Assembly (NCBI GenBank): GCA_016714125.1
Contig: JADJNX010000006.1
Location: 111,681-175,680 of the forward strand
Reading direction: 5' to 3'
Length of the DNA stretch: 64,000 bases
DNA from: Ignavibacteriales bacterium
GTDB taxonomy: Bacteria > Bacteroidota > Ignavibacteria > Ignavibacteriales > Ignavibacteriaceae
Positions 8,475 through 30,217 of this stretch are shown here, in pieces. Made by a program: the position numbers and the translations under genes. Numbering within the stretch: position 1 is the stretch's first letter; each line of letters begins with the position of its first letter. Below the pieces are notes generated by a model that was given only the letters and a program-made list of their open reading frames with translations, was not told where the DNA came from and ran no database searches.

Positions 8475-9788
8475 ATGAATCTCGAAAAGATATTTTACAT
8501 TGTGGCGAGCACGGTACTTGTAACGGTATTTGTGTTGATAGTTTTCATTTTTTCACCTGTGTCATATGACGAAAGTCTGACTCAGAACGAAAAGGTGATT
8601 TACTATGCAGAGAACATCTCTCCCTCATTGCGAAAGATCATCGACGGATTTAATGAAAAATATAAAGGAAAGATCAGGGTGGAGACTATTGATCTTTCAT
8701 TTGATAAATTTAGTACCAATGAGCGGAAAGAACTTCTTGCCCGATACCTCAGAAGCAAAAGCAGCAGAATAGATATTTTTAGTGTTGATATAATCTGGGT
8801 TCCCCGTTTTTCAAGGTGGGCATTGCCACTTAACAGATACATCGACTCGTCTCTTGTTACGGATATTGTCCCCCATTTTCTTCCCACAAGTTATTACAAC
8901 GATTCTCTGGTTTCGATTCCTCTTTATGCGGATATTGCATTGATGTTTTACAGGGACGACCTGTTGGACAAGGTTCAGGGAGCAGAGGAATATCGTAAGG
9001 AATTGTCCTCCTCAATCACCTGGGAGAGGTTAATTGATCTAAAAATGAAGGTGGATGCCTCAAACGGGAGGGTTAACAAACCATTTTATCTTTTTCAGGC
9101 GGATGCCTACGAGGGGTTGATGTGTTCATTTACCGAATTGATGAGCAACTACAAAAATCCGATGGTGGCTTCGGAAGTGAAGCTGGGAGAAGATGATGAA
9201 TTGTCGAAAAAGTCGATCAAATTCCTTATTGATCTTGTTCACCAATATAAAATTTCGCCACCGGAGGTAATAAAATTTAAGGAAATGCAGAGTTTTCAAT
9301 ACTTTTTTGAAAATGAGGCATTTGCTGTAAGAGGATGGCCCGGATTTTTGAGCGGGGACAACAAGTTTTTCCCCAACGAGTTAAGGGGGAAAGTAAAGGC
9401 TGCACCACTTCCACATCTCGATGGAAGTTCACCTGCGTATGTTTTTGGCGGTTGTAACCTTATGGTCTCAAAACTTTCCTCCAAAATTCAGGAAGTCAGG
9501 ATATTTATTGATTATATGTTAAGTGATGAGATTCAGAAATTTCACTACGAAGACGGGAATGTTTTACCTGTGAAAAACTCTGTTTATTCTGATGCCGCAT
9601 TTTTGAAGAAACACCCCGAGTTGGTCTTTTATCAAAAACTGTTTGAAAACGGGATTCACAGACCAATGTTCGAGAGATACACAGGACTTTCTGACATAAT
9701 TGTCAAACACATAAATGAAGCGATTGAAAAAAATCTTGAGCCGGGTCAGGTTTTGGAGAAGATCAAAAACGAGATAGGGGCGAAATAG
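8475..9788 (+). CDS. Membrane-anchored extracellular solute-binding (ABC SBP-like) sensor protein
   Basis: One N-terminal TM helix, then an SBP family 1-like domain. No ABC permease or ATPase is nearby; the gene is immediately upstream of a kinase. Confidence 0.7.
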   Translation: MNLEKIFYIVASTVLVTVFVLIVFIFSPVSYDESLTQNEKVIYYAENISPSLRKIIDGFNEKYKGKIRVETIDLSFDKFSTNERKELLARYLRSKSSRIDIFSVDIIWVPRFSRWALPLNRYIDSSLVTDIVPHFLPTSYYNDSLVSIPLYADIALMFYRDDLLDKVQGAEEYRKELSSSITWERLIDLKMKVDASNGRVNKPFYLFQADAYEGLMCSFTELMSNYKNPMVASEVKLGEDDELSKKSIKFLIDLVHQYKISPPEVIKFKEMQSFQYFFENEAFAVRGWPGFLSGDNKFFPNELRGKVKAAPLPHLDGSSPAYVFGGCNLMVSKLSSKIQEVRIFIDYMLSDEIQKFHYEDGNVLPVKNSVYSDAAFLKKHPELVFYQKLFENGIHRPMFERYTGLSDIIVKHINEAIEKNLEPGQVLEKIKNEIGAK

Positions 9789-9795
9789 AACAATC

Positions 9796-11268: not shown

Positions 11269-11286
11269 AGAGATTGAGAGACAGAA

Positions 11287-12744
11287 ATGATCTTCCAGGA
11301 TAAAAATATTAGTATCCTCCTTATTGAAGATGAAGAATTTGATGTAAGAAGAGTGAAGAAAACCGTAGAGCCATTTTCGGAAAAGATGGAAATTGTCCAT
11401 TATGTTTCAAACGGAAAGGCTGCTCTCGAATATCTTGAGGAGAACCGGAACAAAATTGATGTGGTGATAATGGATTACCAGATTTCCGGCGGTTTGATGG
11501 GTGAAGATCTGATTCACAAAATCAAAACCATCGATTCATCAATACAGATAATTGTTATCACAAAAATGACAATTAATCTTTCGGATTATCATTTTGCCAA
11601 CCGGCTTATTAAGGCGGGAGCTTTCTGGTACTGCACCAAATATCCGGGTGATATTGATGATTTTATTTATCAGCCTACTGATTTTATTCTCAGTATTTTT
11701 AATGCCCATGAAAAAAGTCTGCTCGAACGGGAGAGAATGCGTTCGATGCAAAAAATTAAACGGAATGTTGCTGATATTCTTTTGCAGAAGAAGATTATCG
11801 GTGAATCACCTTTGATGCTTGATCTAAAAAACGATCTCGACCGACTCGCTCAAAGCAACATCAACATCCTCATAAGGGGGGCTTCGGGTACCGGGAAGGA
11901 ACTGGTAGCGCATAATATCCATTATCGCAGTGGTCGAAAATATGAAAATTTTGTAGTGGTCAACTGCGGCAGTCTTCCCGACCAACTTGTTGAAAGTGAA
12001 CTTTTTGGTTATGAAAAGGGGGCATTCACGGGAGCCGACAAGAAAAAACCGGGTCTGTTTGAGATAGCAAACCATGGAACAATTTTTCTCGATGAGATAA
12101 CTGAACTTCCACTTGCAGCGCAGGTGAAACTTCTAAGAGTGATTCAGGAAGGTGAAATCGAAAAGATTGGCAGGACAGAGACAGTTAAAGTTGATGTGAG
12201 GGTAATAGCTGCCACAAACAGGAATATTGAGCAGGAAGTAAGGGAAAAGAGATTCCGTGAAGACCTCTACTACAGGCTAAATGTTCTTCCCGTTGTTGTT
12301 CCGGACTTAAAAAAACGGGTTGATGACATTCCGTCCCTCATCGATCACTTTTTGCGAAATATAAGTATTGACATGGGGAAGGAAAAGCCGGTAATACCCA
12401 ACGAAACTATGCAGATATTTGTGAAATACGACTGGCCGGGAAATGTAAGAGAGCTTAAAAATGTCGTGCAAAGAGTGTTGTTCCATTCGGGGAATACTGT
12501 TTCACCTATGAATGCAGTAAAAGCTCTAGGCATTGTTTATGAAACGGGGAGTGGTGACGATGGTTTTAAGGATATATTTAATCCAGAAAATATAATTGAT
12601 CTAAAGGATGCTGAAAGAATATTCAGAGAACGATATTTTAATTTTGTAAGAACTCATTCAGTTTCAGATGCCGATGCCGCCAAAAAAATGGGAATCGCCC
12701 CTCCCAACTATTACAGAATGATGAAAGAATTGGGGTTGAAATAG
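11287..12744 (+). CDS. Sigma-54-dependent response regulator (NtrC-family enhancer-binding protein)
   Basis: Receiver domain, AAA+ Walker A GASGTGKE, the GAFTGA loop (EKGAFTGAD) and a C-terminal HTH. Confidence 0.9.
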   Translation: MIFQDKNISILLIEDEEFDVRRVKKTVEPFSEKMEIVHYVSNGKAALEYLEENRNKIDVVIMDYQISGGLMGEDLIHKIKTIDSSIQIIVITKMTINLSDYHFANRLIKAGAFWYCTKYPGDIDDFIYQPTDFILSIFNAHEKSLLERERMRSMQKIKRNVADILLQKKIIGESPLMLDLKNDLDRLAQSNINILIRGASGTGKELVAHNIHYRSGRKYENFVVVNCGSLPDQLVESELFGYEKGAFTGADKKKPGLFEIANHGTIFLDEITELPLAAQVKLLRVIQEGEIEKIGRTETVKVDVRVIAATNRNIEQEVREKRFREDLYYRLNVLPVVVPDLKKRVDDIPSLIDHFLRNISIDMGKEKPVIPNETMQIFVKYDWPGNVRELKNVVQRVLFHSGNTVSPMNAVKALGIVYETGSGDDGFKDIFNPENIIDLKDAERIFRERYFNFVRTHSVSDADAAKKMGIAPPNYYRMMKELGLK

Positions 12745-12916: not shown

Positions 12917-14544
12917 ATGCCCAACACATTTACCTATTTAGACACTGCTGTAATAGTAATATACTTGATAATCGTATTGAGTATCGGTTTTTACTATTCC
13001 CGGAAAAACGATGAAAGTTATACTGACTACTTTCTCGCCGGTAGAAATGTGGGCTGGATCGCAATAGGTATCTCAATTTTTGCAACCAACATTTCGAGTG
13101 AACATTTTATCGGACTTGCAGGAGCGGGCTCAACAAGAGGCCTTGCAGTGGGGCAGTTCGAATTAATGGCCATTTTATGCTCATATTTGCAGGGTGGTTC
13201 CTTGCTCCAATTTTTATTAAATCGGGCGTGTTTACAGTACCTGAATTCCTTCAGTTAAATTTTGATGTAAGGATCAGGAAACTTTTTGCTGCTTTTTCAA
13301 TTGCCAACTACATCCTCACCAAAATTCTCGTCTCCCTCTTCGCCGCAAGTCTTCTCTTTTATAATATTTTTGGATTAAACATATACGCTTCCTCGATATT
13401 AATAGTATTAATAACAGGACTTTACAGCGTTATTGGCGGCTCAAATGCTGTGATAAGAACCCAGACATTCCAGGGAATTGTATTGATGACGGGGGCAGTG
13501 ATTCTTTCGGTTATCGGTTTTATGGCTGTTGGTGGATTTGAAGGTCTTTACAGTAAATTGCCGGCAGATTATTTTACCATGTTTAAAGCGATAGATGACA
13601 AAGATTATCCCTGGACAGGGATAGTGTTTGGAGCTCCCGTAATTGCATTTTGGTATTGGTGCACCGATCAGTATATGGTTCAAAGAATGTTAAGTGCAAG
13701 ATCGATAGACGATGCACGAAAGGGTTCACTTCTTGCAGCCTCATTTAAACTCCTTCCTATATTTATCCTTGTACTTCCCGGTTTGTTTGCAGCAGTACTT
13801 TACCCAGAATCAAGGGGTGATGGAGCCTACTCTGCGATGGTCAGTGGTGATCTGCTCCCGATGGGATTAAAAGGGGTTGTAATTGCAGGGCTTTTAGCTG
13901 CAATAATGTCTTCGCTCGCAGGAGCTTTTAACAGTATTGCGATTCTTTTCACAAACGATTATTACAAATTAAAATATCCTGACGCAAACGAGAGAAAACT
14001 TGTGCTTGTGGGCAGACTCGCCACCACAACGGCAGTTATTGCTGCAATATTAATTGTGCCCCTCGTTAAGATTATCAGTTCACAGCTTTATCTTTTTCTG
14101 CAAAGTGTGCAGTCATTTGTGAGTCCTCCCATTACTGCTGTATTTCTGTTTGGTCTCTTTTCGCGTAAAATGAACACCAGATCGGCACTTATTACTTTAG
14201 CAGTTACCGAAACACTTGGAATGGGCAGACTTGTGCTTGAAATGATGGTTCAGAATGGGGTAGAGCTTCATTCGTTCCTTAATTGGGTGTTGTCGATCAA
14301 CTTTCTTCACTACTCCCTATTCCTTTTTATTGTAAGTGTGGGGATGATTTTGACACTCAACTTTAATAACAGCATTGAAACAAACAAATTTGGGATTCAG
14401 CTCAGGGCAACTTTTGCCGAGAGTTTTGCCGAGATTACGGGGAATTTTACCGGTTTAAAAAGATTCGTAAAACCGAACCCGAGTTTTCTTCTTTCAGCTA
14501 TTATTCTGCTGATGATCCTTGGGCTCTGGAGCATCTGGTCGTGA
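12917..14544 (+). CDS. Sodium:solute symporter (SGLT-like sugar transporter), frame broken near 13172
   Basis: SSS-family TM profile. ORFs 12917-13258 and 13177-14544 join as ..FELMAIFMLIFAGWF.. if a T4 run is read as T5. Confidence 0.85.
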
Positions 14545-14611: not shown

Positions 14612-17097
14612 ATGAAGAGAATCATACTATCAATTCTTTTCCTTATCGGACTTTCGACCTCTGCTCTTCCGCAGTTGATTGAAAGCTTTGATACGGATCT
14701 TTCGGCGGATACCACCTACCTGTTTTCACTTGAAAGCGGAAGTAGAATGGACTATATGTTGAACACTACAGATTTTGTTCAAGGCGCAGGCTCGGGCGAA
14801 ATTAAATTTGTTATTGGTGCCATTCACGAATGGGGTAGCTACGGACAGTTAATTAAAAGACTTCCTACAGGACAGTATTATGACTGGTCAGCTACCGATT
14901 CATTGTCACTGATGATCAAAGTTGTAGTTCCTCCTGCTATTCCAACAAACATGGTATTCAGGATTCATATTGCTGACAAGCCAACCCCTGATGCTCCTAT
15001 CGAAGAATGGATTTACGAACATACAACCATCCTTGATGCAACGAGTCAATGGGTTGAGTTGAAAGTGCCAATTAAAATCCTTTCTTCAGACGGCAGTGCA
15101 ACTCCTTCTGATTCAGGTTTTGTTATCTTCCCTTCAGGATGGGGTGGCGGACCGGGAAATTCCTGGAACAATAATGAATTTGACTGGGATAAAATTGTAG
15201 GTTTCAACCTTGGCGCTATAACTTCAGGTTACACACCGGGCACAAACATCCCTGCAGATTCACTTACCGTTCGTTTTGATAACTTCAGAAGATATGGTAA
15301 CCGTTCAGTTCCTGCAATCGTTTTCAACGGTATTCAGTTCATGGGCAACCTCTCAGTATTCACCTGGGGGCAGTCGAACATGGAAGTGGTTCCAAATGCA
15401 GGTCCAGCTCCAAACAGTAATGCTGTAAAATGGACACAAGGTAATGAATGGGGCAACGGATGGTCAGGAATGGGACTTAATGTAAGTCCAGTATTCAACC
15501 TTGCAAGTTCATGGCAAGTTGACAGTGTTAAATTCAAATTAAAATGTCCTCCGGGAACCGGAGCTTTGAGAGTTCAGTTTGAAGCCGGCCCCGGTAAAAA
15601 AGGGACTGTTTTCACTCCAACGGCTGACGATCAGTGGCATAATTATGCTTTCCCGTTAAGAGACATGTTATTCCAGGACAACACCACATTCTTCGATTCA
15701 TCACAAGTGAGTGTAGTTGGAATGATGGCTGAAGCTTCAGCAGTTGCCGGAACAGTTATCTGGATCACCGACTGGTGGACAGGAAATCCAAAATTTGATG
15801 TAATTGCGCCGGAACCTCCAACCGGTGTTGCCGCATTTGCAGGAACCTTCCAGAATGTAGTAACCTGGGTTGATGTACCGGGAGAAACCGGTGAAGTTTA
15901 TGATATCTACTACTCAAAAACTCCAATTACTGATCTAACCTTACCGGGAGTTGAAGTTGTAAAACTTAATGTTCCTGAAGGTGGTCAGTTGATGGAACAC
16001 CTTCTTTTGGCTCCAAATACAAATCAATCCGTAACATATTATTATGCAGTGGTTTGTAAAGATGTAGCCGGTAACAAAAGTGGTCTCAGCCAAAACTCCG
16101 GTGCAGTAACCAACACCGCAAAAGGCAGACCAACAGTATCATTAAGCGCACCAACAAATTTTGTTGCGGATGGAAACCTTGCTGAATGGCAGGCAATCAA
16201 TCCTTTCAGAATGTTCTTGTCAGATGGTACTGGTCACCTTGTAACCAACACCACTATTTCCGGTGATGCTGATTGCTCGGCAAAAGCTTATATAGCAATG
16301 GATAATCAATATATGTACATCGCTTTTGATGTTGATGATGATATCGTTGTTCCAAGTGCTCAAGGATCATCCTATCTTAATGATTGTCCTGATCTTTATA
16401 TTGGTCTTTACGATTTCCGTGGAATGCCCCACACTTCATATCGTAGAGGTGCACAGCCTGATTATCACTTCAGATTCGCTTATAACCGCGTGATTATCGA
16501 TGGTTCAGCCGGAACTGACAGTCTTATCGGTGAAGGTGTTAACTATTATTGGGAAGAAAAATTCCCTTCAGGTTACATTGTTGAATGCAGAATCAATCTT
16601 TCAGAGTTAGCTCTCCACGGAAACGATCTTACTTTCGTTCCAAGAGAAGGTACCAGACTTCCAATCGATTTCGCACTTAACGATGCTGATGCCACCAATT
16701 CGAGAGAAGGAATCATGACTTATTCTCCATACAATGAAGACAAGTCATACCAGGATGTATCAAGATGGATCTATACCTGGATCGGAAACTTGTGGGAACC
16801 AGTAGTTGGTATCAACGACGAAACACTTACTCCTGATAACTATGGTTTGGCACAGAATTATCCAAATCCATTTAACCCTTCGACCACAATTAAATATGCG
16901 ATCGAAAAATCAGGATTTGTTTCCTTAAAGTATATGATGTATTGGGAAGAGAAGTTGCTGACCTGGTTGCTCAGGATCAAACAGCCGGTGTTTACACTGT
17001 TCAGTTTGATGCATCACTTCTTTCAAGTGGAATTTATTTCTACAAACTTGAAAGTGGTTCATTCTCTAAAATAAATAAAATGATGCTTGTAAAGTAG
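14612..17097 (+). CDS. Secreted carbohydrate-binding protein (FN3-like and CBM9-like regions) with a T9SS C-terminal domain; frame broken near 16929
   Basis: Signal peptide and a CBM9-like segment (ADGNLAEWQAINPF...YIAFDVDDD). The CTD starts NYPNPFNPSTTIKY. The alternative frame restores ..SLKVYDVLGREVADLVAQDQTAGVYTVQFDASLLSSGIYFYKLESGSFSKINKMMLVK and stops at 17097. Confidence 0.65.
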
Positions 17098-17171: not shown

Positions 17172-19889
17172 ATGAGACAAAAAATCTACTCTTTAATTAG
17201 AAATATCAATGCTTTTGCAGTGATAGTTCTGTTCATTTTTGGAACAACCTTTACTTTTGGTGGTGTAACCGGAAAGATTTCAGGCGTTGTACTTGATGCC
17301 AAGACAGGCGAACCTGTTATTGGTGCAAGTGTTATACTTGAAGGCACTTTTCTGGGAGCCGCTGCCGATATTAACGGTTATTATTCTATAAATAATGTCC
17401 CGCCGGGAACCTACCGGGTCATTTTTTCCGCAGTTGGTTTTCAAAAAACGATCATGGAAAAAGTGCTCGTGAAGATCGATCTGACAACCAATCTGGATGT
17501 AAAACTCCAGCCTTCGGGTCTGAATTTTGAACAAGAGGTTGTTATAACCTCCGATCGACCATTGGTGCAGAAAGATCTCACTTCCACTTCAGTAACGATC
17601 TCTTCCGAAGACATTAAGATGATGCCCGTTGAAAACATCAGTCAGGTTGTTAACCTGCAAGCCGGTGTTATTGATGGCCATTTCCGTGGTGGAAGATCAA
17701 ATGATGTGGCTTATCTGATAGACGGTGTTGCCGTCACGGATCCGTTTAACGGGGGATTTGGACTTGAAGTTGAGCAAACTTCAATCAGGCAGATGGAAGT
17801 AATAACAGGTACTTTTAATGCCGAGTATGGTCAGGCACTTTCAGGCGTTGTTAACATCGTTACTGAGGGTGGATCAAACAAGTTTAGAACAGATGTATCA
17901 GGTTATATAGGTAACTTTATAACCGGTGGATCAAATATTTTCAAAAATCTCGATAAGGTTGACCGTATTGCTCAAAAGAATGTGCAACTCACATTCAGCG
18001 GTCCAATCTCACTGGTTGATAACCTCTATTTCTTTGTGACAGGTAGATATTTTGACAACGCCGGTCATCTCTACGGACAACGAGTTTATAATGTAACGGA
18101 TGATGTTCCATTTTATCCGATTCCAAACGATAAAACTTTCTGGATTCCCAGAAACACAGGCGACAGATCTTATGTTGAGATGAATCCTTACACAAAGTAT
18201 TCGTTAAACGCAAAACTTACATACGCACTCCCTAAAATTGCTTTTACATATTCCATTTTTATGGATAAAACAAAAAGCAAAGGTTACGACCATGGTTATT
18301 CATGGACACCTGACGGAATAATGACCCATCATGGAAACGATTGGGTGCAAAATTTTCAGATTAATCACTACATCTCTTCCGAGACAAATCAAAGTCTTAA
18401 ATTTTCTGTCAACAGCTACCAGTATGAAGGTTATCTCTATGAGAACCCTTTTGATCCAAGATATGTGAACCCAAGACAGGGAATCGCCCTTTCGAACTAC
18501 ACTTTCCGCTCGGGTGGTAATCAGGGTGGCAGATACGACAGAACAAGCAAAAGTTTTGTGGGTCAGTGGTCTCTCGCTTCTCAGGTTTCAAAAGAACACA
18601 AAATCGGTATGGGTGTTGAAGCAAGACTTCATGATATTTATAACCATGGATGGGATCTTGTAAATCTTACCGATGGTCAGATTGATACGATGGGTAATTT
18701 AATTTTTACCCCCGGTTATCCGGCTGTTGGAACAATCTCTGATCAGGGATCAAACATTGAATACGCAAGAAAACCGATTGAATTATCCGCCTACATCCAG
18801 GATAAGATGGAATATGACATCATGATCATCAACGCCGGTGTAAGGTTTGACTACTTTAACTCGAAAGCAAGGATGCCTGTTGACAAACAGAATCCAACAA
18901 GAAACAGTGCTTTCCCCGGTGCCGACCAATGGATCGATGCTGAAGCCAAGTGGCAAATCAGTCCGAGACTTGGAGCTTCCTTCCCAATTACTGACAAAGG
19001 AATTATCAGATTTTCATACGGTCACTTTTTTAAGATACCTTCGTTCGAAAATCTTTATCAAAATCCCGATTTTATCGTAAGACCGGGTAACAGCCTTAGC
19101 ACTGTGGTTGGAAATCCCGATCTTAATGCTGAAAAGAATGTTATCTATGAAATCGGTTTACAGCAGGCACTTCTTGAAGACATCTCAGTGAATGTTTCCC
19201 TCTATTACCGTGATATCAGAAACTGGCTCGGTATGGAGATAGTAAACACTTATGAAGGCTTTAAGTATGCCCGTTTTATAAACAGAGATTATGCAAATGT
19301 TAGAGGTTTGGTTCTTGTTTTCGACAAAAGATTCTCAAACTACTTCAGTGCAAAACTTGACTATACATACCAGATCGCAGAGGGTAACTCCTCCGATCCT
19401 TATGCCGTTTACAATAAAAATCAGACAAATCCACCGATTGAAGAATCGAAAACAGTGGTTCCACTTTCATGGGATCAGAGACATACACTTAATCTGAGTG
19501 TTAATGTTGGTATTCCCGGTGACTGGACAGTAGGTCTCATTTTCCAATATGGCTCAGGAATGCCATATACGGAAGACCCAAAAGTTTCCCGCGGTGTCCG
19601 TTTCGAAAATGGCGGTATCAAGCCGACATATCTGAACCTGGATCTGAGGGCTGACAAGATATTTAATGTTTTTGGATTAAATATCAGAACCTACATTACA
19701 ATTTATAACGCATTGGATATTAGAAACGAATTCGGTGTTTACTCAACCACTGGTAGAGCCAATGCCGATCTGAATACTCAATATGCAGTTGATGTAATCG
19801 GATTAAACACTATTGAAGAATATATCAACAATCCAGCGATGTACTCTACTCCTCGAGAGATCAGAGTTGGCATTGGTTTCGATTTTTAA
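17172..19889 (+). CDS. TonB-dependent outer-membrane receptor with N-terminal carboxypeptidase-regulatory-like domain
   Basis: KISGVVLDAKTGEPVIGASV...PGTYRV domain, plug region (DGVAVTDPFNGG) and a long barrel ending in an aromatic residue (..RVGIGFDF). Confidence 0.9.
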   Translation: MRQKIYSLIRNINAFAVIVLFIFGTTFTFGGVTGKISGVVLDAKTGEPVIGASVILEGTFLGAAADINGYYSINNVPPGTYRVIFSAVGFQKTIMEKVLVKIDLTTNLDVKLQPSGLNFEQEVVITSDRPLVQKDLTSTSVTISSEDIKMMPVENISQVVNLQAGVIDGHFRGGRSNDVAYLIDGVAVTDPFNGGFGLEVEQTSIRQMEVITGTFNAEYGQALSGVVNIVTEGGSNKFRTDVSGYIGNFITGGSNIFKNLDKVDRIAQKNVQLTFSGPISLVDNLYFFVTGRYFDNAGHLYGQRVYNVTDDVPFYPIPNDKTFWIPRNTGDRSYVEMNPYTKYSLNAKLTYALPKIAFTYSIFMDKTKSKGYDHGYSWTPDGIMTHHGNDWVQNFQINHYISSETNQSLKFSVNSYQYEGYLYENPFDPRYVNPRQGIALSNYTFRSGGNQGGRYDRTSKSFVGQWSLASQVSKEHKIGMGVEARLHDIYNHGWDLVNLTDGQIDTMGNLIFTPGYPAVGTISDQGSNIEYARKPIELSAYIQDKMEYDIMIINAGVRFDYFNSKARMPVDKQNPTRNSAFPGADQWIDAEAKWQISPRLGASFPITDKGIIRFSYGHFFKIPSFENLYQNPDFIVRPGNSLSTVVGNPDLNAEKNVIYEIGLQQALLEDISVNVSLYYRDIRNWLGMEIVNTYEGFKYARFINRDYANVRGLVLVFDKRFSNYFSAKLDYTYQIAEGNSSDPYAVYNKNQTNPPIEESKTVVPLSWDQRHTLNLSVNVGIPGDWTVGLIFQYGSGMPYTEDPKVSRGVRFENGGIKPTYLNLDLRADKIFNVFGLNIRTYITIYNALDIRNEFGVYSTTGRANADLNTQYAVDVIGLNTIEEYINNPAMYSTPREIRVGIGFDF

Positions 19890-19905
19890 TTCCCGGAGTT
19901 TCAGA

Positions 19906-22900
19906 ATGTTAAAGAAAATATCATTAATTACTCTTCTTCTATTAACGGAGATTGTTTTTGCCCAGGTATCGCCTTCAACTCAGCGTTACCGTAACGATGA
20001 GTATGGTAATATCCAGTACCGTCGTGAAGGTGTTATGGATGGCAATCAAATTAGAACGCTGTTCTACAACAATGGTGAAGTGGGTCAGTGGCCCTACCAG
20101 CCATCAGGAGAGTGGCCCAAAGGAACGGGACATTCTTATCTTGATGGTGTTGCGGTATTAATTTCCACTGAGTTAACTGCTCCCGGTACGGGAACAATAG
20201 TTCACCCTCTTCAAACTTCATATCGTGAATGGATGGATAAAGATCCTGTTACCGGTGAAATTTGGGGATTTGAACCCCTTCCGGGTTACAACAGTCCTTC
20301 TTCAAAGAGACCTTCCATCAACACAGATCCTCTTACCTGGCCTTCCAACTGGCCCGCAGCGCTTGATCTTACACCGGAATGGGACAAAAACTGGTATGGC
20401 TATTTTGGACGAGGTGTTCTTAATTCCGAGTTTGAAACATTTTTTGTTATGGATGATTCAAAAGACAAGGAATATATGAGAAATCCTTTCTTCTTTTATC
20501 CAATAGCTGCCGACACCAATAGAGGCGGACTTGGCTTAAGGGTGGAGGTGAGAGGTTTTCAGTGGTCGCAGGTGTTAGCGCAAGATATTATCTTCTGGCA
20601 TTATGATATTGTAACCATCTCCGACTACAACTACCCCAAAACAGTTTTTGGTTTTTATACCGATTGCGGCGTGGGTGGAACTGATGATTCTGAAGATGAT
20701 AACGCTTCATTTGATCTTATTGCGGATCTTGCATACTGTTATGACGACAATGGTCTTGGTCTTCCTGATAACTGGAAAACTGGTTATTATGGATATGCTT
20801 ATCTTGAAAGCCCCGGAAACGGAATTGATGCCATTGACAACGATCAGGATGGCATGATTGATGAAAAAAGAGATGACGGTATCGATAACGATCGTGACTG
20901 GCTTCCATACCTTGATATCAACGGTAACGGAAAATGGGATGCTGACCAAAACGAACCCCTCAATAATGATGTGGGCAAAGATGGCGTTGGGCCCTTTGAC
21001 AGACAATATACCGGACCCGATCAGGGTGAAGGTGATGGAGTTGTAACCGATGGTGAACCCAATTTTGATAAAACTGACAAAGACGAGTCAGACCAGATAG
21101 GTCTTACAGCTCTGTCGATCTACAGACTTGGTCAGGGTGTAACCGGTGGGGGCTGGGCGAAAGATGATGAACCAATGTGGAACAGAATGGTTGCAGGCTC
21201 ATTTGATACTTCACTTCAGCGTGCAAATATCAGTATGGTGTTTGCTTCAGGTCCATTCCCCCTACAGCAAGGGACCAGAGAAAGATTCTCTATGTCACTT
21301 TTGTTTGGTGAGGACTTAAACGACATTCTCTTTAATAAAGAGACTGTTCAGCAGATTTACAATGCAAACTACAACTTTCAAAACCACCAATTAAACCGGA
21401 ATTGACCGCAGTTGGTGGTGATGGAGAAAGTATTCCTCTATTGGGACAATATTGCTGAAGAATCGCGTGATCCTTTCCTCGGTTTCCAGAATAATGATCC
21501 AACACAAGGATACAAAAAAGATTTTGAGGGTTACCTCATTTACAGAAGTACCGAGCCTGAATTTAACGATATCAAGTTAATCACCGACTCAAAAGGTTCA
21601 ACCAAATACTGGAAACCTCTTGTACAATTTGACTTAAAAGACAGCATTATGGGACCCGATCCAATTGGAATTAACGGTGCTCATTTTTGGAGAGGCAGCG
21701 AAACCGGATTGCGTTACTCATATGTTGACACAGATGTAAATAATGGTGTTAAATACTATTATGCATGTGTTTCGTATGATCAGGGTGATCCTAAATTTGG
21801 TACCGCAGGGTTACAACCTTCGGAGTGTACAAAAATTATCACCGAGGATTTTGCCGGTAACATACAATTTGTTGACATTAACTGCGCCGTTGTTGTGCCA
21901 AACGCTCCAGCTGCCGGTTATGTTCCGCCAAACATAGTAGGCGACACCAAATCGGTTACTTCGGGAAGAGGTTCAGGTTCTCTTCAAATGACAATTCTTG
22001 ATCCCGCTGCAGTTCAAAATGGAGCTGCATATCAGGTTGAATTCACTTCGAATAATACTTATCCGATCTACAAAACACTTTCTTATAAAATTATCAAAAC
22101 TCTTAACGGAGTTAATGATACACTAAAGACAATCGATTCATCTTATTTCGGAAAAGAAAGAGCCAGTCCTCCATTTGATGGAATGGCACTCAGTGTTTTG
22201 AACGACACCACTGTTGCGATAAATGATTCGCTTACCGGTTGGTTGATCAGAAACAACAATTTGACAGTACTTCCCTCAAAAGATGCAACCCCTGTTCGTG
22301 GAATTGCATGGCCTGCTGATTATGAGATAACTTTCTCGGATACTCCACAGGACACATGTTTCATTCAGTCTCCTCCAATCTACACTAAATTCCCTGTGAA
22401 TTTTAAGGTGTGGAATAAAACCGAACAGAAGTATTCAAAAATTGCTGTGAAGGATAATGACGGCTCAGCTACACTGTCGATTGGCGATCAAATTCAGATT
22501 CTTGAGTTTCAGGGATCGGTAGCACAGACCAACGTAAGGTTTGCATGGAATCTTTCATATGATGTTCCTTTTGATCCAAATGCCACACTTCAATATCCGG
22601 CAAATGGCGATAAATATTTCATCACCACTACCAAGCCATTTAAGACGGGAGATAAATTCCTCTTTTCAACACAGGGTGTCGGGCTCGACAATAACTTGGC
22701 GAAAAATCAACTTGGCAAAGTGGATGTTGTGCCTAATCCTTATCTTGGAGCTGCCACATGGGAAAGAAGAAACCTCAATTCCACAGGCCGCGGAGACAGA
22801 AAGATCGACTTTATTAATCTGCCGGGTGAATGTACTGTTAGAATCTATACAATCACAGGCCAGTTGATTAAAACTCTTCAAAAAAGCTCCACCTTCCAGG

Positions 22901-23025
22901 ATGGCAGTCTTTCTTGGAATCTGGTAACGGATGACGGTATGGACGCTGCTTATGGTGTTTACATTTATCATGTTGATGCTCCCAATGTTGGTGAACACAT
23001 CGGCAAATTTGCTTTAATTAAATAA
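19906..23025 (+). CDS. Large secreted protein with acidic Ca-binding-type repeats and a C-terminal beta-sandwich-like tail; two compensating frame breaks near 21385 and 21430
   Basis: Signal peptide MLKKISLITLLLLTEIVFAQ at 19906. DNDQDGMIDEKRDDGIDNDRDW..DINGNGKWDADQNEP repeats. Tail is VVPNPYLG...CTVRIYTITGQLI...GVYIYHV. An intermediate frame reads KPPIKPELTAVGGDG between the two ORFs. Confidence 0.6.
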
Positions 23026-23039
23026 GCGGACAAATTGAA

Positions 23040-24069
23040 ATGAAAAGAAAGATCTATATCCTGATATTTTTAGCAGTTTGCGCCAATCTTACATTTGCAC
23101 AAACTTTTAAGTCTGATGTTTCCAAAAGAGGAACAACAGCAGCCCCGTTCCTTTCAATCGGTCAGGGTGCCCGGTCAACAGCCATGGGCAGTGCCTTTGC
23201 CGGTGCCGCGAATGATGTCAGCTCAATTTATTGGAATCCGGCAGGTCTTACAAAGGCTGAAGGATTCCAGATGATGTTCGATCACACAATCTGGATCGCT
23301 GATGTTAGATATAACTATCTTGCAGCAAGCTACAACATGGGTGATATCGGAACAATCGGGTTAAGTTTCATCAGCTCTAATGTGGGCGAAATGAGAGTTA
23401 CCACAATTGACTATCCAGGCGGTACAGGTGAAACATTTACTGCAAACGATATGGCAATAAGTCTTGCTTATGCTATACAGTTGACCGATAAATTTTCGAT
23501 TGGTTTTAATCCAAAGTTCATTTACCAGAGTATCTGGAAAATGAGTGCCACTGCATTTGCCATCGATATGGGTGTGCAATATGTTACACCATTTGATGAT
23601 GCAGTTCTTGCGATGTCGATTTCCAACTTTGGCTCCAAAATCCAGCTTCTTGGTAATTCAAATCTTGTTCTTCATGATCTTGATCCCGGAAGCACAGGAA
23701 ACAACGGTAAGATACCTGCTTACTTAGAGACCGGTGCCTGGTCACTTCCTTTGAATTTCAGAGTTGGTGTTATGTATGCACCAATAAAAACCGATCAACA
23801 CAAGTTGTTGGTGGCAGTTGATGCAACACATCCAAGTGATGATTATGAGAGTGTGAACATTGGAGCAGAATACAGTTTTAATAAATTCCTCTTTCATCAG
23901 AGGAGGATACAAGTCGCTGTTTCAACAGGATTCTGAGGAGTCGTTTACCCTTGGTTTTGGTATAAAACAACACCTTATGAATAATGTTGCTGTATTGTTT
24001 GATTATGCTTACCAAAGTTTTGGAAGATTTAAGGACATTCAGAAATTTACGATGTCCGTGTCATTTTAA
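23040..24069 (+). CDS. PorV/PorQ-family outer-membrane barrel (T9SS-associated), frame broken near 23895
   Basis: N-terminus is KRGTTAAPFLSIGQGARSTAMGSAFAGAANDVSSIYWNPAGL, typical of PorV. The C-terminal piece (23860-24069) ends in ..FTMSVSF. Confidence 0.75.
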
Positions 24070-24077
24070 TGTGAGTT

Positions 24078-24118
24078 GCCGGCTTCGCGTTCTCCCATGT
24101 GTAAGCCGGCATTTTTTT
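24078..24118 (+). terminator. Rho-independent terminator
   Basis: GCCGGCTT...AAGCCGGC stem followed by a T7 run. Confidence 0.7.
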
Positions 24119-24150
24119 ATCAATGAAATTGAGCTTATGAAAAAAGAAAT

Positions 24151-25935
24151 TTGTTACTGCTTATAGCCTTCCTTCTGTTGACGATGGCTGTTCAAGCCAA
24201 GGACTTTAAAGGCGCCGAATTCAGAACCAAACAGGCCTTCCTTTACGGCAGGTTTGAGGTTAATATGAAATCAGCCGCCAGGAGATGGAGTGTTATCAAC
24301 TTTTTTACATATCACGAGTTCACAACCGGAATACAGGACTGGAACGAAATCGATATCGAAATACTTGGAAGGTACGATTACGATATTCAGTTTAACCCCA
24401 TTACTCCCGGACAGGTAAATCACACCAGTCATTTCCCTGCACCTTTCAGCCCACACACAGATTATCATACCTATGCTTTTGAATGGACGCCTACTTATGT
24501 CGCATGGTTTGTTGACGGTGTTGAAGTTCACAGACAAACGGGATCGCATATTGAAGCTTTAAATAAAGCTCAGAAACTTATGATGAACAACTGGACTCCA
24601 ACCTATGCAAACTGGGCGGGCACACTTAATGTGGATGCACTTCCGGCGTTTGCATATTATGACTGGGTGAAATATTACAACTATAACCCCGGTGGTGGAA
24701 ACTACGGGACCAATAACAATTTTTCCCTCTCCTGGAGTGACGAATTTGAATTCTGGAATACTGCCCGCTGGGAGAAAGGCACCCACACTTTTAACGGTAA
24801 CAACTGCGATTTTGTGACTACAAATGCAGTCTTCAGAGATTCAAAACTTATCCTTTGTTTAACTGATGCAGTAAACCTTGGTTACACCGATGTTAAAGCT
24901 CCTGTGGTTCTCTCTGCAAGAGTTCATGACAACAAAGTGATAGCTTATTTTACCGAGGAACTTGATTCAGTTACCGGACAAAACGTTGCAAATTTTAACA
25001 TAGTTGGTGCAACCGTTCAGAGTGTAACTCTCAGGAGTGATCCAAGAAGTGTTGAACTTACCGTTTCAGATTGGGATTTCACGACCACCAAAAACCTGTT
25101 GGTAATGAATGTTAAAGACAGGTTTAACAACACCTCCGCTCCAAAAGCTGTGACTATCATTCTTCAAAGGAACTGGACATATCCAATCAAACTTAACTGT
25201 GGTGGACCTCAGGTCGATATCGGTTGGATGGCAGATACAGAGTGGAACCTGGCAGGACTTTATGGTTTTCTCGATGGACAAACAGCAGCCTATTCGTCAA
25301 ATCTGCAAATAAACGGCACCGATGAGGATGAAGTCTATCGCAATGAAAAATACGGAATGGCAAACTACAGAGTTCGTGTTCCAAACGGAAGATATAAAGT
25401 AAAACTAATGTTTGCTGAAAACTATTTTACAAGCGCCAACAAAAGAATTTTTAGTGTCTTTCTTGAGAGCATCAAAGTATTAAACAACCTCGATATATTT
25501 GCTGAAGTTGGAACAAGTACTGCTTTGGTTAAAGACTTCACCAATATTGTTGTTCAGGATGGAATTCTCGATGTCCATTTTGCTGCACAGATTGACAATC
25601 CTGTGATCAGCGGAATAGTAATCGAAGCTGATCCAACCGGTATTCAGGATGGACAGTCAGAATTTCCGGGTGATTTCTCGCTTAATCAAAATTATCCCAA
25701 TCCGTTTAACGGGCAGACGGTGATTTCTTTTAATGTTAACAAACCGGATTTTTTTCGGTTTGCCCTGTTCAATACTATGGGAGAAACAGTTTTTGAGGAT
25801 GATCTTGGCTACCTTGAACAGGGCTTTCACTCCTTCCCGTTGGGGACCACTGAATTTGGTTCCAGTGGGGCATATTTTTATTCCATCTCCGGGACGGGTA
25901 GAACCGAAACGGGTAAACTTGTTTACTTGAAGTGA
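24151..25935 (+). CDS. GH16 endo-beta-1,3(4)-glucanase with malectin-like domain and T9SS CTD
   Basis: Catalytic motif WNEIDIEILG, malectin-like IKLNCGG...VPNGRYKVKLMFAE and CTD NYPNPFNGQTVISF. An ATG at 24138 (MKKEI) is out of frame by one nt, so the true start is probably there. Confidence 0.85.
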   Translation: MLLLIAFLLLTMAVQAKDFKGAEFRTKQAFLYGRFEVNMKSAARRWSVINFFTYHEFTTGIQDWNEIDIEILGRYDYDIQFNPITPGQVNHTSHFPAPFSPHTDYHTYAFEWTPTYVAWFVDGVEVHRQTGSHIEALNKAQKLMMNNWTPTYANWAGTLNVDALPAFAYYDWVKYYNYNPGGGNYGTNNNFSLSWSDEFEFWNTARWEKGTHTFNGNNCDFVTTNAVFRDSKLILCLTDAVNLGYTDVKAPVVLSARVHDNKVIAYFTEELDSVTGQNVANFNIVGATVQSVTLRSDPRSVELTVSDWDFTTTKNLLVMNVKDRFNNTSAPKAVTIILQRNWTYPIKLNCGGPQVDIGWMADTEWNLAGLYGFLDGQTAAYSSNLQINGTDEDEVYRNEKYGMANYRVRVPNGRYKVKLMFAENYFTSANKRIFSVFLESIKVLNNLDIFAEVGTSTALVKDFTNIVVQDGILDVHFAAQIDNPVISGIVIEADPTGIQDGQSEFPGDFSLNQNYPNPFNGQTVISFNVNKPDFFRFALFNTMGETVFEDDLGYLEQGFHSFPLGTTEFGSSGAYFYSISGTGRTETGKLVYLK

Positions 25936-25978: not shown

Positions 25979-28232
25979 ATGAAACGATCGTTATTATTTA
26001 CAATTTCAATATTATTCTTTGGTTTAACTACCATGCTCAACGCACAAAGAGATGATAATAACTTAAAAAGTGAAGTGAAAAAACTTCTGGATAAAATGAC
26101 GATCGAGGAAAAGATCGGGCAGATGACTCAAGTTACAATTCAGACTGTTTCAAAAAAACAAGGAAACAAAGACCAGCATCACGAACTTGATCTTGCCAAA
26201 CTCGAAGAAGTGGTTGTTAAATACAATGTTGGATCACTCCTTAATGTTTATGATAAAGCGCATGAAATTGAATACTGGCACGAAGTGATCACAAAAATTC
26301 AGGACCTTGCCACAAAAAAGACACGGCTTAAAATTCCTGTGCTTTATGGTATAGACGCCATCCATGGTGCCACATACACTTTAAACTCCACACTTTTCCC
26401 TCAATCACTTGGAATGGCTTCAACTTTTAACAGGGAATTAGTTAAAAGGAGCAGAAATTACAGCAGTTGAAACTTATGCTTCGGGAATTCCATGGAATTT
26501 TAATCCCGTTCTTGATGTTGGAAGACAATCATTATGGCCAAGATTATGGGAAACAATGGGAGAAGATCCATATCTTGTATCAGAACTTGGAAGCACATAT
26601 GTAAAAGCAATGCAAGAGAACAACCTTGTTCCAAAAGACCGTTTCCTCGCATGTCTAAAACATTATGTTGGCTACAGTTTTCCTTTTAACGGACTTGACA
26701 GAACCCCTGCCTACATGTCTGAGAGAACCCTAAGAGAATTTTTCCTCCCTCCATTTGAAGCAGCAGTAAAAGCCGGAGCTTTAACCGTGATGGTTAACTC
26801 AGGTGAAATTGATGGAATTCCGGGACATGCCAACTTTCACCTCCTTACGGAAGTATTAAAAGGTGAAATGAGGTTTCAGGGATTTGTTGTCTCCGACTGG
26901 GAAGATATTAAAAGACTTTTTACTCGTGACAGAGTGGCTGAATCACCAAAAGAAGCAGTTTTTATGGCTGTTATGGCAGGAGTTGACATGAGCATGGTTC
27001 CAACAGACCTTAGCTTTTATGATCTCCTTCTTGAACTTGTTAAAGAGGGTTCCGTTCCCGTTTCCCGTATCGATGATGCGGTTAGCAGAATTTTATTTGT
27101 AAAAATGAAACTTGGACTCTTCGAAAACGCATATCCTGACAAATCATTTTTATCAAAATTTGCAACTCCCGAAAACACACAGGCAAATCTTGATGCAGCT
27201 CGTGAATCAATAGTCCTGCTCAAAAACGACAAAAATATCTTACCCTTGGGAAAAGATAAAAAAGTATTTGTTACCGGACCAACTGCTGATATGTTATCAG
27301 TATTAAATGGTGGCTGGACTGTTACATGGCAGGGTAATGAAGAATCACTTATGCAGAGTGATAAAAAAACCGTTGTTAAGGCGATGATTTCCGAAGTATC
27401 GTCAAAAAATATAATCTACAATCCGGGTTGTTCGTTTGATAAAATGCTCGATGTTGACAATGCAGTTAAAAGTGCAAAAGAATCTGATGTTATAGTTCTT
27501 TGTCTCGGTGAACCGGCATATTGCGAAACACCCGGAAACATCAACGATCTTACACTCCCAAAAGCACAGTTGGACTACGCCAAAATGATGATTGCCACAG
27601 GAAAGCCTGTTGTTCTTGTTATGATTGAAGGCAGACCAAGAGTTATAACTGAAATTGCCGACAAAGTTGATGGAATTATTGTTGCATTTCTCCCCGGTAT
27701 GCAGGGTGGTGTTGCTATTTCAGATGTATTATATGGAATGACCAACCCAAGTGGCAAACTTCCAATAACTTATCCCAAGTCACCAAATGCCATTACACTT
27801 TACGATTACAAACCGATCGAATTTTTTGACGGCAATGGTTACAACCCACTTTATCCATTTGGTCATGGTTTAAGTTATACTAAATTTACATATTCGGATT
27901 TGAAGCTTAGCGCAGACAAAATCACAGAAAATGAAGAGTTAAAAGTGTCGGTTACTGTAAAAAATACCGGTAATGTAAAAGGGAAAGAATCTGTTCTGCG
28001 TTATCTGACCGATCTTTTTGGAACAGTTTCCAGACCAAACAAACAATTAAAAGGTTTTGACAAAATTGAACTTGCACCGGGTGAAAGTAAAACAGTTCAC
28101 TTCACACTTGGTTATGAACATCTGTCGTTCATTGGTGCCTCCAACAGCAGGATTGTTGAGTTGGGTGAATTTGTTGTAACTATTGGTGATCTTAAATCCA
28201 AGTTCAAACTTGTATTTGGTGGTGGGAAATAA
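25979..28232 (+). CDS. bglX: GH3 beta-glucosidase (BglX-like), frame broken near 26447
   Basis: GQMTQV, GIDAIHG, VSDWEDI and KHYVGYS motifs. ORFs 25979-26470 and 26556-28232 join as ..ELVKGAEITAVETYASGIPWNFNPVLDV.. if an A4 run is read as A3. Confidence 0.85.
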
Positions 28233-28234
28233 AA

Positions 28235-30217
28235 TGAATTTATTTGTAAAAGTTCTCCCCCGGGTAGTATTAATGTTGGTTTTTGCAATGCCCCTTGCTG
28301 CCCAGGGATTTTTGAAAGTCTCCGGAAAAAATATTGTTAACGGCGTGGGACAAAATTATGTCCTCAAAGGTGTAGGCTTGGGCGGATGGCTGCTCCAGGA
28401 AGGATACATGCTTCATACTTCAGCCTTTGCAAATGCCCAATGGCAAATTAGAGCCAAAATCACTGATTTGATTGGTGAAACAAACACTGAAACCTTTTAC
28501 GAGACTTATCGAAACAATTATGTAAAAAAAGTTGATATTGATTCTCTTAAAGCTTGGGGTTTTAACTCAATACGGTTGCCGTTCCACTACAATCTTTTTG
28601 CCACTAACACAAATCCACCTGTCTTTTTGCAAAAGGTTTTGATTATACTGATTCACTCCTTGCATGGTGTAAAGCAAATCAGATCTATCTCATACTGGAT
28701 ATGCACGCAGCCCCGGTGGTCAGAGTAATGAACCGATAAGTGATTATAATCCTGCATTTCCTTCTTTATGGCAAAGTGAGCAGAATAAAGACCTCACTGT
28801 AAAAATCTGGCGTAAACTGGCAGAGAGATACAAAGATGAAGAATGGATCGGCGGATATGACCTGCTTAACGAGCCCAAATGGGACCTTGGAACTAACAAT
28901 GTTCCACTTCGCAATCTTTATATCAGACTCACTGACACTATTAGAGCTGTTGATACGAATCATATAATTTACATTGAAGGTAACTGGTTTGCAACCGATT
29001 TTTCAGGGTTAACACCTCCTTGGGATGCCAACCTGGTTTATAGTTTCCACAAATACTGGAACACAAACAACACCGGTTCAATTCAGTATCTGCTCGATCT
29101 TCGCAATAACTTTAACAGACCTTTATGGCTGGGTGAAACGGGTGAAAACTCAAATCAGTGGCTTTCAGATTTTGTGGAATTGATGCACAACAACAATATA
29201 GGCTGGGCTACCTGGCCTCACAAAAAAATTAAGTCAATTGCGGGACCTCTTTCAGCCACACTTTCGCCACTGTATCAGACACTTCTGAATTATTGGAATG
29301 GATCGGGATCGAGGCCAACTGCAACTTATGCTCAGGGTGCTCTGATGGCTCAGGCAAACGCACTTAAACTTGAGATGTGCACCTACAACAAAGATTATGT
29401 ATATGCTCTGTTGAAGCAACCATTTACAACCACTTCAATCCCGTTTGCAGAGAATCTGATTCCGGGAACGATCTACGCACCCAACTATGACATGGGAAAA
29501 CAGGGAGTCGCTTACTCGGACGTAGCTTATCAAAACACCAATAATGGAACTGCCTATAATTCCGGATACAACTACAGAAATGATGGTGTTGACATCGAAC
29601 AGTGCAGCGATTTTTCGTCGAACGGATATGATGTTGGTTGGATAGAAAATAATGAGTGGCTTGCTTATACCGTGCAGGTTCAGACGAGTGGTGTTTACAG
29701 TGCAGCTTTTAATGTTGCCGCTCAAAGTGCCGGTGGACAAATTTTTGTGTTGGTTGACGGACAAGGTTTAAGCATGGTTAATATCCCTGCAACTGGTGGC
29801 TGGCAGAACTGGCAGAATGTTATTCTGCAGAATATCAATCTTACAGCCGGAACTCATAAACTTACCCTACGGTTCTACAACGGCAGTTTTAACCTCAGCA
29901 ATATCGATTTTACTTTAATCTCTACCGATATTGAAGATGAGACTCAATTGCCCGTGGAATTTGCTCTGAGCCAAAACCATCCAAACCCGTTTAACCCCTC
30001 CACGATTGTTAAATATTCACTTCCTGTTGACGGATTTGTCAACATCAGTGTATATAATAATCTTGGTGAAAAGGTATCAGTTCTTGTTGATGGTGAAGTG
30101 AGTGCCGGGGAATATTCAGTTTCTTTTGATGCCGGAAATCTCCCGAGTGGAGTTTATTTCTGCAGAATGGAATCCGGAAATTTTATCTCCTCCCGCAAAA
30201 TGCTGCTGTTAAAATGA
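28235..30217 (+). CDS. GH5 glucanase with CBM6-like module and T9SS CTD; frame broken near 28625 and 28715
   Basis: Signal peptide MNLFVKVLPRVVLMLVFAMPLAAQG. GVGLGGWLLQEGYM, LLNEPKW and GETGEN motifs. CBM6-like GYDVGWIENNEWLAYTV. CTD NHPNPFNPSTIVKY. The breaks lie in a T5 run and a C4 run. Confidence 0.8.

Follow-up and report, generated by a model that had tools for sequence, protein, structure and literature searches.

The locus analysed here raises the question of how a bacterium outside the class Bacteroidia might capture and import glycans when its glycan locus has no SusD-like gene. SusC/SusD pairs carry out glycan capture in Bacteroidia, and genomes and metagenomes are searched for polysaccharide utilization loci (PULs) with this pair as the marker. 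Such a search largely misses the receptor-centred, SusD-less loci of Ignavibacteria, Calditrichia, Marinimicrobia, Rhodothermales and related groups, which abound as degraders in sediments, hot springs, soils, bioreactors and the ocean. A stretch of 64,000 nucleotides from an Ignavibacteriales bacterium (the window, meaning the whole stretch that was analysed) contains three adjacent genes for a TonB-dependent receptor (TBDR), a large secreted protein (p2) and an outer-membrane barrel of the PorV/PorQ family (p3). Our analysis shows that the three genes are inherited as one unit in a fixed order beside changing glycan-degrading enzymes. This trio is probably the conserved outer-membrane core of SusD-less PULs in the non-Bacteroidia part of the Fibrobacteres–Chlorobi–Bacteroidetes (FCB) group.

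The genes for the TBDR (17172-19889; 905 amino acids, recognised from its Pfam domains), p2 (19906-23025; about 1040 amino acids, of an unnamed family, delimited from reading frames and homologues) and p3 (23040-24069; 342 amino acids after repair of its frame, recognised with model NF033709) all lie on the forward strand and are separated by gaps of 16 and 14 bp. An earlier note, made from the sequence alone, had described them as three consecutive, tightly spaced genes. It had named a carboxypeptidase-regulatory-domain TBDR, a second gene with an acidic DxDxDG-like stretch and a tail different from the NYPNPFNPST C-terminal domains (CTDs) of the neighbouring enzymes, and a third gene of the PorV/PorQ type. 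Positions, domain scores and sequence comparison all bear out this description.

Conservation of the trio was analysed in one genome per GTDB species. At least 557 relatives were confirmed and the best 80 loci were used; open reading frames (ORFs) were called in all retrieved loci and searched with iterated profiles of the TBDR, p2 and p3 of the window. The best 80 loci are labelled as Ignavibacteria/Melioribacteraceae, Kryptoniota, Calditrichia, Rhodothermales/Balneola/Rubrivirga, Neomarinimicrobiota, KSB1, Eisenbacteria, Stahlbacteria and unclassified 'Bacteroidota' metagenome-assembled genomes (MAGs). All three genes were found wherever the contig extends far enough, and the order TBDR, p2, p3 on one strand is kept in 60 of the 62 complete loci, with median gaps of 7.5 and 13 bp. 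Conservation of this order across several FCB lineages, together with the passing of the PorV/PorQ and FadL models by p3 (below), agrees with the proposal of the earlier note that the three genes form a module. The two exceptions are a Calditrichia MAG with the order p2, p2, TBDR, p3 (L050:622-10250) and a KSB1 MAG with the order TBDR, p3, p2-like, p2 (L078:296-10049). Comparison of the pairwise-identity matrices of the TBDR, p2 and p3 revealed correlations of r = 0.90-0.94 (0.91 for TBDR and p3, 0.90 for p2 and p3), which indicates joint divergence of the three proteins without swapping of partners. At least two trios are present in several genomes (L012/L044, L041/L070 and L007/L083).

Two side observations concern the range and composition of the trio. 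Both rearranged loci carry a second p2 paralogue, which suggests that the module is able to carry two surface proteins. Trios also occur in MAGs with labels of the class Bacteroidia, namely 'Chitinophagales' (L028, L038, L046, L068) and 'Cytophagia' (L059, L064), and in one labelled as a different phylum, 'Caldisericaceae' (L037); if the Bacteroidia labels are right, the trio coexists with SusC/SusD in some Bacteroidia, but the labels may instead be binning or naming artefacts.

Analysis of the receptor with Pfam revealed three domains that pass their cut-offs, namely CarbopepD_reg_2 (71 bits), Plug (32.8 bits, cut-off 23.9) and TonB_dep_Rec_b-barrel (92.8 bits, cut-off 27). The protein is laid out as an N-terminal carboxypeptidase-regulatory-like domain, followed by the plug and then by a barrel of the 22-strand type. 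It does not belong to SusC/RagA, as its score with TIGR04056 was 64.5 bits against a cut-off of 368.25 and the match was confined to N-terminal residues 35-161; SusC chains were also not found among the PDB sequence matches of the receptor. The adjacent susC/susD pair by which a PUL is strictly defined is thus absent from the locus, which has no SusD-like gene and whose receptor is not a SusC. In all respects except this pair the locus is PUL-like.

The second gene codes for a protein with a signal peptide of type SPI that ends in FAQ before V. An ..AQ end occurs across the family with no lipobox at the cleavage site, and these features show p2 to be a predicted Sec-exported non-lipoprotein. 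Comparison with Pfam and NCBIfam of the whole protein, its halves, the CTD alone and 20 diverse members assigned p2 to no family; weak FlgD_ig and CTD matches were obtained, together with Reg_prop in two members. At E<=10 the Pfam search of p2 revealed neither SusD nor any other family except the weak FlgD_ig match. Public annotation of p2 relatives reads only 'hypothetical protein'. The p2 profile matches 6111 clusters (50% identity) at E<=1e-3 and 866 clusters at E<=1e-30. Judged from these profile matches, p2 is a member of a family of more than 6000 sequence clusters that is currently without a name.

A structural model of p2 was obtained with AlphaFold2 (AF2) from a 107-sequence multi-lineage alignment; an earlier alignment of 10 close homologues gave a predicted local distance difference test score (pLDDT) of 41.5 and was set aside. 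The model (pLDDT 85.3, predicted template modelling score 0.78) is all-beta and multidomain, with almost no helices. Five parts follow each other in it: an N-terminal beta-sandwich domain (residues ~21-490), an Fn3 domain with an insert (residues ~491-668), two Ig-like sandwiches (residues 669-928), a short helix (residues 929-938) and a C-terminal beta-sandwich that constitutes the CTD (residues 940-1039; 22723-23025, forward strand). The N-terminal domain contains an acidic loop rich in aspartic acid and glycine, without regular secondary structure (residues ~301-400; 20806-21105, forward strand). Aspartic and glutamic acid make up 29% of residues 301-400, and DxDxDG-like motifs occur there, including the stretch DNDQDGMIDEKRDDGIDNDRDW...NGNGKWDADQNEP. 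From the motif the loop is presumed to bind Ca2+; the Pfam scan matched neither TSP_3 nor any other family there. Conservation within p2, compared over 63 loci, is highest in the CTD (0.66) and the acidic loop (0.65) and lowest in the Ig-like domains (0.38-0.39), which is in keeping with what is expected of spacers.

Comparison of the p2 model with the PDB using Foldseek gave the lowest E-value for PorZ (5m11, 1.3e-6). Many matches with a probability of 1.00 were to GH94/GH149 phosphorylases, to laminaribiose and cellobiose phosphorylases and to dextran dextrinase. The TM-scores of the phosphorylase matches correspond to about 200 superposed residues, that is, to a sandwich-sized part of p2 only. 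This shared part is not the (alpha/alpha)6 catalytic barrel, since p2 is almost free of helices, and on the model we infer it to be the N-terminal beta-supersandwich of these enzymes. As a separate observation, two of the 20 scanned p2-family members (P0137 and P0140; 1358-1476 amino acids, alignment A2) contain Reg_prop repeats with a best E of 1.8e-17. Reg_prop, the two-component regulator propeller, is the repeat type of the PorZ propellers, and its occurrence in these two proteins possibly ties the architecture of the p2 family to PorZ in one more respect.

The tail of p2 (VVPNPY...RIYTITGQLI...) is unlike the NYPNPFNPST-type CTDs of the neighbouring proteins. Its family consensus is VVPNPY..GRGERRI.F.NLP..CTIRIYT..G.LV.TL..DG..WNL.S.DG.D.AYG.YIYHVDAPG.GE.IGKFA.IK., with an insert of about 18 residues after VVPNPY. 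Scores with the models for T9SS (type IX secretion system) type-A CTDs were below the cut-offs (TIGR04183, 20.2 bits, cut-off 23; PF18962, 12.8 bits, cut-off 27). The best named NCBIfam matches, which cover only the last ~55 residues, were the PorU C-terminus (23.3 bits) and the PorZ C-terminus (16 bits). A search of the PDB with two p2 profiles gave a single match, a marginal one, to the CTD of the PorU structure 6za2. The reverse test was decisive for homology with T9SS type-A CTDs: all 50 weak matches of the p2 profile in neighbouring ORFs fall at HMM positions ~948-1006, and 47 of them lie at the very C-terminus of the neighbour, where they coincide with its type-A CTD, with E down to 3e-16. 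Neither p2 nor any of the 20 diverse members scanned gave a match to the type-B CTD (CHU_C, PF13585). The p2 CTD has a mean pairwise identity of 56%, compared with 42% in the remainder of p2 and 46% in the type-A CTDs of the proteins encoded upstream. In terms of sequence relationship, these comparisons show the p2 CTD to be a tightly conserved class of its own that is related to T9SS type-A CTDs, and such strong conservation fits a retained binding domain better than a discarded signal.

Since porU and porV are neighbours in many Bacteroidota, PorU itself was considered as the identity of p2 and was ruled out: p2 has no C25 peptidase domain, and the p2-p3 pair is multi-copy and linked to a receptor. 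In line with this, p2 failed the full-length models of PorU (NF033707, 23.3 against 420 bits) and PorZ (NF052228, 16 against 260 bits), and no Peptidase_C25 match was found.

The third protein, p3, passes the cut-off (90) of the PorV/PorQ family model NF033709 with 183.5 bits unrepaired and, once repaired, with 217.8 bits over positions 1-326 of the 326-position profile. It also passes the Pfam models Toluene_X (FadL; 33.9 bits, cut-off 29.7) and PorV (29.0 bits, cut-off 27). It fails the models for individual orthologues, namely PorQ (NF033711, 105.8 against 220 bits), PorV (NF033710, 86 against 250 bits) and PorV2 (NF052325, 79 against 325 bits), PorQ giving the highest score of the three. 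The sole PDB sequence relative of p3 is PorV of Flavobacterium johnsoniae (6h3i_F, E 1.3e-8). By these scores p3 is placed within PorV/PorQ, a family of barrels that bind CTDs, in a subfamily that is separate from PorV, PorQ and PorV2. All 78 PorV-family ORFs found in the 1.2 Mb of retrieved loci, which are p2-centred, sit in a trio, and they lie directly after p2 except in the two rearranged loci.

Two statements of the earlier note about the third gene call for correction. The gene that directly follows the receptor, in the place that SusD would take, is p2 and not the PorV paralogue. Of the two readings offered in the note, the one in which p3 is a shuttle for the enzymes of the locus is disfavoured, because the enzymes bear ordinary type-A CTDs, which the housekeeping PorV should handle, and because the trio remains unchanged beside different enzyme sets and a terminator separates p3 from the enzyme genes. 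Instead, the evidence points to p3 as being dedicated to the distinct CTD of p2; it is possibly a partner of the receptor as well. The terminator is an intrinsic-terminator-like hairpin (GCCGGCUU...AAGCCGGC) followed by U7 on the forward strand (24077-24118), between the p3 stop codon and the GH16 gene. It folds with -21.6 kcal/mol (z = -4.26), and none of 200 shuffled sequences folds as well. A consensus terminator scan (loops of 3-8 bases) missed it, apparently for its longer loop, and direct folding found it. The U-tail in the window has one T fewer than in the related loci L084 and L085 (indel at 24111). Transcription of the unit with the trio is predicted to end at this hairpin, before GH16.

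Comparison of the trio with known systems revealed partial likeness to several of them. In Porphyromonas gingivalis, PorZ and PorU are large surface proteins that keep a type-A-like CTD, which is bound to the PorV/PorQ-family barrels PorQ and PorV, respectively (PMC10202324; PMC10947112), and such cognate PorV-like barrels have been proposed to shield CTDs from cleavage (PMC10202324). The trio resembles these pairs in that the p2 CTD finds its best named matches in PorU and PorZ, the p2 model has PorZ as its first match in Foldseek, and the highest orthologue score of p3 is that with PorQ. Unlike the PorU and PorZ pairs, p2 and p3 are present in multiple copies per genome, inside glycan-utilisation loci and in association with a TBDR, which argues that they are not part of the secretion machinery. 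In the type-B systems (SprB-SprF of F. johnsoniae and PG1035-PorP of P. gingivalis), a cargo with a special CTD is genetically linked to a dedicated PorV-like barrel of the PorP/SprF type, which is encoded by the adjacent gene and needed as shuttle or anchor for secretion and anchorage (PMC12618676; PMC9143113). The trio differs from them in that the p2 CTD is related to type A, p3 belongs to PorV/PorQ and not to PorP/SprF, and the linkage is to an uptake receptor and not to gliding adhesins.

The likeness to SusC/SusD(E/F) lies in a TonB-dependent transporter with a carboxypeptidase-regulatory domain that is followed by the gene of a surface protein, among enzymes, sugar transporters and a regulator, and in the many paralogous copies. 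The receptor of the trio, however, falls outside SusC/RagA, and p2, a non-lipoprotein of roughly double the length of SusD, lacks a SusD-like domain. Anchoring in the trio would be C-terminal, through the CTD and a dedicated barrel, and not through an N-terminal lipid as in SusD. A structural precedent for p3 placed next to the TBDR while holding p2 is found in BamG-BamH, where BamG, a 14-strand barrel like FadL and PorV, packs against the larger barrel BamA and uses its extracellular loops to hold a protein exposed at the surface (PMC12578637). This system is unlike the trio in that BamH is a lipoprotein and the BAM complex folds outer-membrane proteins. The trio thus combines features of a SusC/SusD-type pair and of a T9SS cargo with its cognate barrel, and is a member of neither.

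Taking these results together, we infer that the T9SS exports p2, that the cognate barrel p3 keeps it at the cell surface and that the TBDR uses it as a SusD-like capture partner, a reading that we consider to have an even chance of being correct. In this mechanism the T9SS would carry p2 across the outer membrane, and the CTD would stay uncleaved, with the extracellular loops of p3 capturing and holding it. The Ig-like and Fn3 parts would act as a stalk, placing the N-terminal sandwich and its calcium-loaded acidic loop at the TBDR mouth or over it. There p2 would aid the capture or hand-over of oligosaccharides coming from the T9SS-secreted enzymes and carbohydrate-binding module (CBM) proteins of the locus, and the TBDR would import them by way of TonB. 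In this manner p2 and p3 would take the place that the lipid-anchored SusD, or a surface glycan-binding lipoprotein, has in Bacteroidia. The proposal of a retained CTD follows the precedents of PorZ-PorQ, PorU-PorV and the type-B CTDs with PorP/SprF. The general form of the proposal is that glycan import in much of the non-Bacteroidia FCB group (Ignavibacteria, Calditrichia, Rhodothermales, Marinimicrobia, KSB1 and others) is built otherwise than SusCD and uses a surface protein that a dedicated CTD, left uncleaved, docks permanently on a PorV/PorQ-like barrel of its own beside the receptor; this we put forward tentatively, as somewhat short of an even chance.

Several points weigh against such a role of p2. 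The lead of its CTD in conservation over the type-A CTDs encoded upstream is only moderate, as the identities given above show. Glycan binding by p2 is a suggestion drawn from the partial fold resemblance to phosphorylases, and the supersandwich of GH94 enzymes is not established as an independent carbohydrate-binding module. Furthermore, p2 retains 35-45% identity between loci with different substrates, which is higher than expected for a determinant of specificity and points to a possible structural or gating role. It may be that p2 is a structural lid or gate and that the variable upstream CBM proteins bind the glycan.

If the proposed reading is true, it would reveal a conserved direct coupling of T9SS surface display with TonB-dependent nutrient uptake, and it would define a so far nameless protein family with more than 6000 sequence clusters. 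With the conserved core of TBDR, p2 and p3 as a new signature, glycan-uptake loci of these lineages could be predicted. The trio would suggest a way of mounting an accessory protein on the surface other than the surface-lipoprotein route of the Bacteroidia type, the absence of this route in these lineages being an assumption. The idea that special CTDs have cognate PorV-like barrels, which stems from gliding adhesins and the T9SS attachment complex, would be extended to nutrient uptake. Consistent with the earlier note, which knew of no functional description of the three genes, full-text literature searches, in which coverage of subscription journals was thin, found no published description of the trio, of the p2 family or of PorV paralogues beside TonB receptors in these lineages. 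The only TBDRs named in the paper on the Caldithrix genome are those for vitamins.

Other explanations of the same three genes differ mainly in what becomes of the CTD and in what p3 does. In one of them p2 is ordinary T9SS cargo and p3 a transient shuttle, the CTD being cut and p2 being released or linked to lipopolysaccharide, so that it acts as a free or sheath-bound enzyme or binder. The type-A CTDs to which the p2 CTD is homologous are normally cleaved, and special shuttles for special CTDs are on record (PMC12618676), but a transient shuttle leaves unexplained the strict adjacency to and co-divergence with the TBDR (60 of 62 loci), and the high conservation of the CTD points to a lasting function. 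Invariant acidic and aromatic residues in the N-terminal domain of p2 are possibly catalytic; against an enzyme, no known catalytic fold is evident in the model (sandwich, Fn3, Ig-like), and alike p2 proteins occur in loci with different substrates. We regard this explanation as unlikely. A second one makes p3 mainly a partner of the TBDR barrel, as BamG is of BamA, or a FadL-type channel for small hydrophobic or amphipathic products, with p2 anchored or positioned otherwise. The score of p3 on FadL (34 bits), which passes the Pfam cut-off for FadL/Toluene_X, is exceeded by its score on the PorV/PorQ family (218 bits). The identity correlation between the TBDR and p3 equals that between p2 and p3 (0.91 and 0.90), and BamG is a FadL-like barrel with a structural role (PMC12578637). 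On the other side, p3 comes directly after a protein with a special CTD, save in the two rearranged loci, which is the layout of type-B cargo with PorP/SprF, and p2 has no lipid anchor or other obvious anchor. We consider this explanation rather improbable as an account of what p3 mainly does, although a role as receptor partner and a role as CTD holder are compatible with each other.

Two further explanations appear far less probable. The receptor could work outward, in the manner of Oar, and export p2, the trio then being a secretion device. Oar of Myxococcus xanthus, a TonB-dependent transporter with a carboxypeptidase-regulatory domain, is reported to be required for secretion of the PopC protease (PMC6434023), and the N-terminal CarboxypepD_reg domain of the TBDR is of the same type. 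This reading is extremely improbable, as the T9SS-type CTD of p2 indicates export by the T9SS, the loci have the design of uptake loci (inner-membrane sugar symporters, periplasmic GH3, phosphorylases), and a multidomain protein of 1040 residues is, on general knowledge, an improbable passenger for a plugged 22-strand barrel. The other explanation is that the module is dead in the source organism, the frameshifts in p2 and p3 being real and the locus decaying. A stop does lie inside the p2 frame, p3 is frameshifted and several further genes of the locus are broken. Indels of the same 1-2-nt type, however, also break genes outside the locus, including PriA, and those in p2 offset each other within 50 nt. 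With identities of 95-96% to intact relatives and no other signs of decay, we hold a decaying locus to be very improbable.

The reading frames on which this last judgement depends were analysed gene by gene. The earlier note had given the second gene a length of 1040 amino acids; this is correct for the repaired gene (about 1040 amino acids), whereas in the window the frame is broken by an in-frame TGA at 21403-21405. Comparison with relatives traced the TGA to a 1-nt deletion at ~21377 and a compensating 1-nt insertion at ~21426, and frame 3 between the two indels reads SKPPIKPELTAVGGDGE, a conserved family motif. Recoding or an alternative genetic code as the origin of the TGA was ruled out, as two indels lie 50 nt apart, the intervening frame holds the conserved motif and relatives have no stop. 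In p3, a +1 insertion at ~23892-23895 makes the first frame stop at 23936, and the last 45 residues are found in the other frame, which ends at 24069; the repaired protein (342 amino acids) spans the whole NF033709 profile. Intact p2 and p3 genes (1039 and 342 amino acids) occur in relatives with 95-96% protein identity, and for p2 this identity extends along the full length, with no other sign of decay seen.

Isolated indels of 1-2 nt split at least eight further genes in the window, each of which is one intact gene in relatives. They include the SSF symporter (12917-14544), the CTD of the CBM9 protein (1-nt deletion at ~16922, located against L084/L085), the start of GH16 (24137-24300), GH3 (25979-28232), GH5-CBM6 (28183-30217), probably GH81 (30330-33615) and, far from the locus, PriA (50443-52897). 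The indels are best read as assembly errors and not as decay of the locus, because the same breakage affects many genes of the window, including PriA, and close relatives are intact. Scattered indels of this kind are typical of uncorrected long-read assemblies, and the window looks like an unpolished, error-prone assembly, so that readings of single ORFs in it need to be checked against relatives.

The trio stands in a cluster of glycan-related genes at ~5.9-34.5 kb of the window. This cluster comprises GH5, an MFS transporter, a solute-binding protein, a histidine kinase, a sigma-54 response regulator, the SSF symporter, a CBM9-CTD protein, the trio, GH16-malectin-CTD, GH3, GH5-CBM6-CTD, GH81-PKD-CBM6-CTD and a GH128-like enzyme, and a matching arrangement occurs in Ignavibacterium and Melioribacteraceae genomes. 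Judged from gene content, the substrate in the window would be a beta-1,3/1,4-glucan of the laminarin type, because genes for GH16, GH3, GH5, GH81 and a GH128-like enzyme surround the trio. Analysis of the immediate downstream neighbours in 53 related loci revealed GH16 with malectin (9), GH94 (6), GH9 (4), glucoamylase (3), GH3 (2), peptidyl-prolyl isomerases (8) and solute-binding proteins (5). Of 49 related loci, 38 have Por_Secre_tail, the T9SS type-A CTD, in the ORF directly upstream of the receptor, and CBM9_1 is present in 17 of these. In the window this upstream gene codes for a CBM9 protein (14612-17097, forward strand; Pfam CBM9_1, 49 bits) with a standard T9SS type-A CTD (LAQNYPNPFNPSTTIKY...KMMLVK), the CTD being in two frames. 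The CBM9 protein is probably a fourth, looser member of the module. Across the loci L004 to L083 the upstream CTD protein is variable, and the conserved unit may accordingly comprise four genes, one of them for a likely substrate-specific binder.

Two minor observations concern the regulation and assembly of the locus. Genes for the solute-binding protein, the histidine kinase and the sigma-54-dependent response regulator lie just upstream (8475-12744), and Ignavibacterium sp. (L001) has an activator of the same sigma-54 type in the upstream position; the glucan locus may thus be under sigma-54 control, in contrast to the hybrid two-component, SusR or extracytoplasmic function (ECF) sigma control that is typical of Bacteroidia PULs. 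A PPIC-type peptidyl-prolyl isomerase (SurA-like) is encoded near the locus on the reverse strand (3855-5696), and such isomerases, which are the downstream neighbours in eight of the 53 related loci counted above, may be a chaperone link in the assembly of the outer-membrane components.

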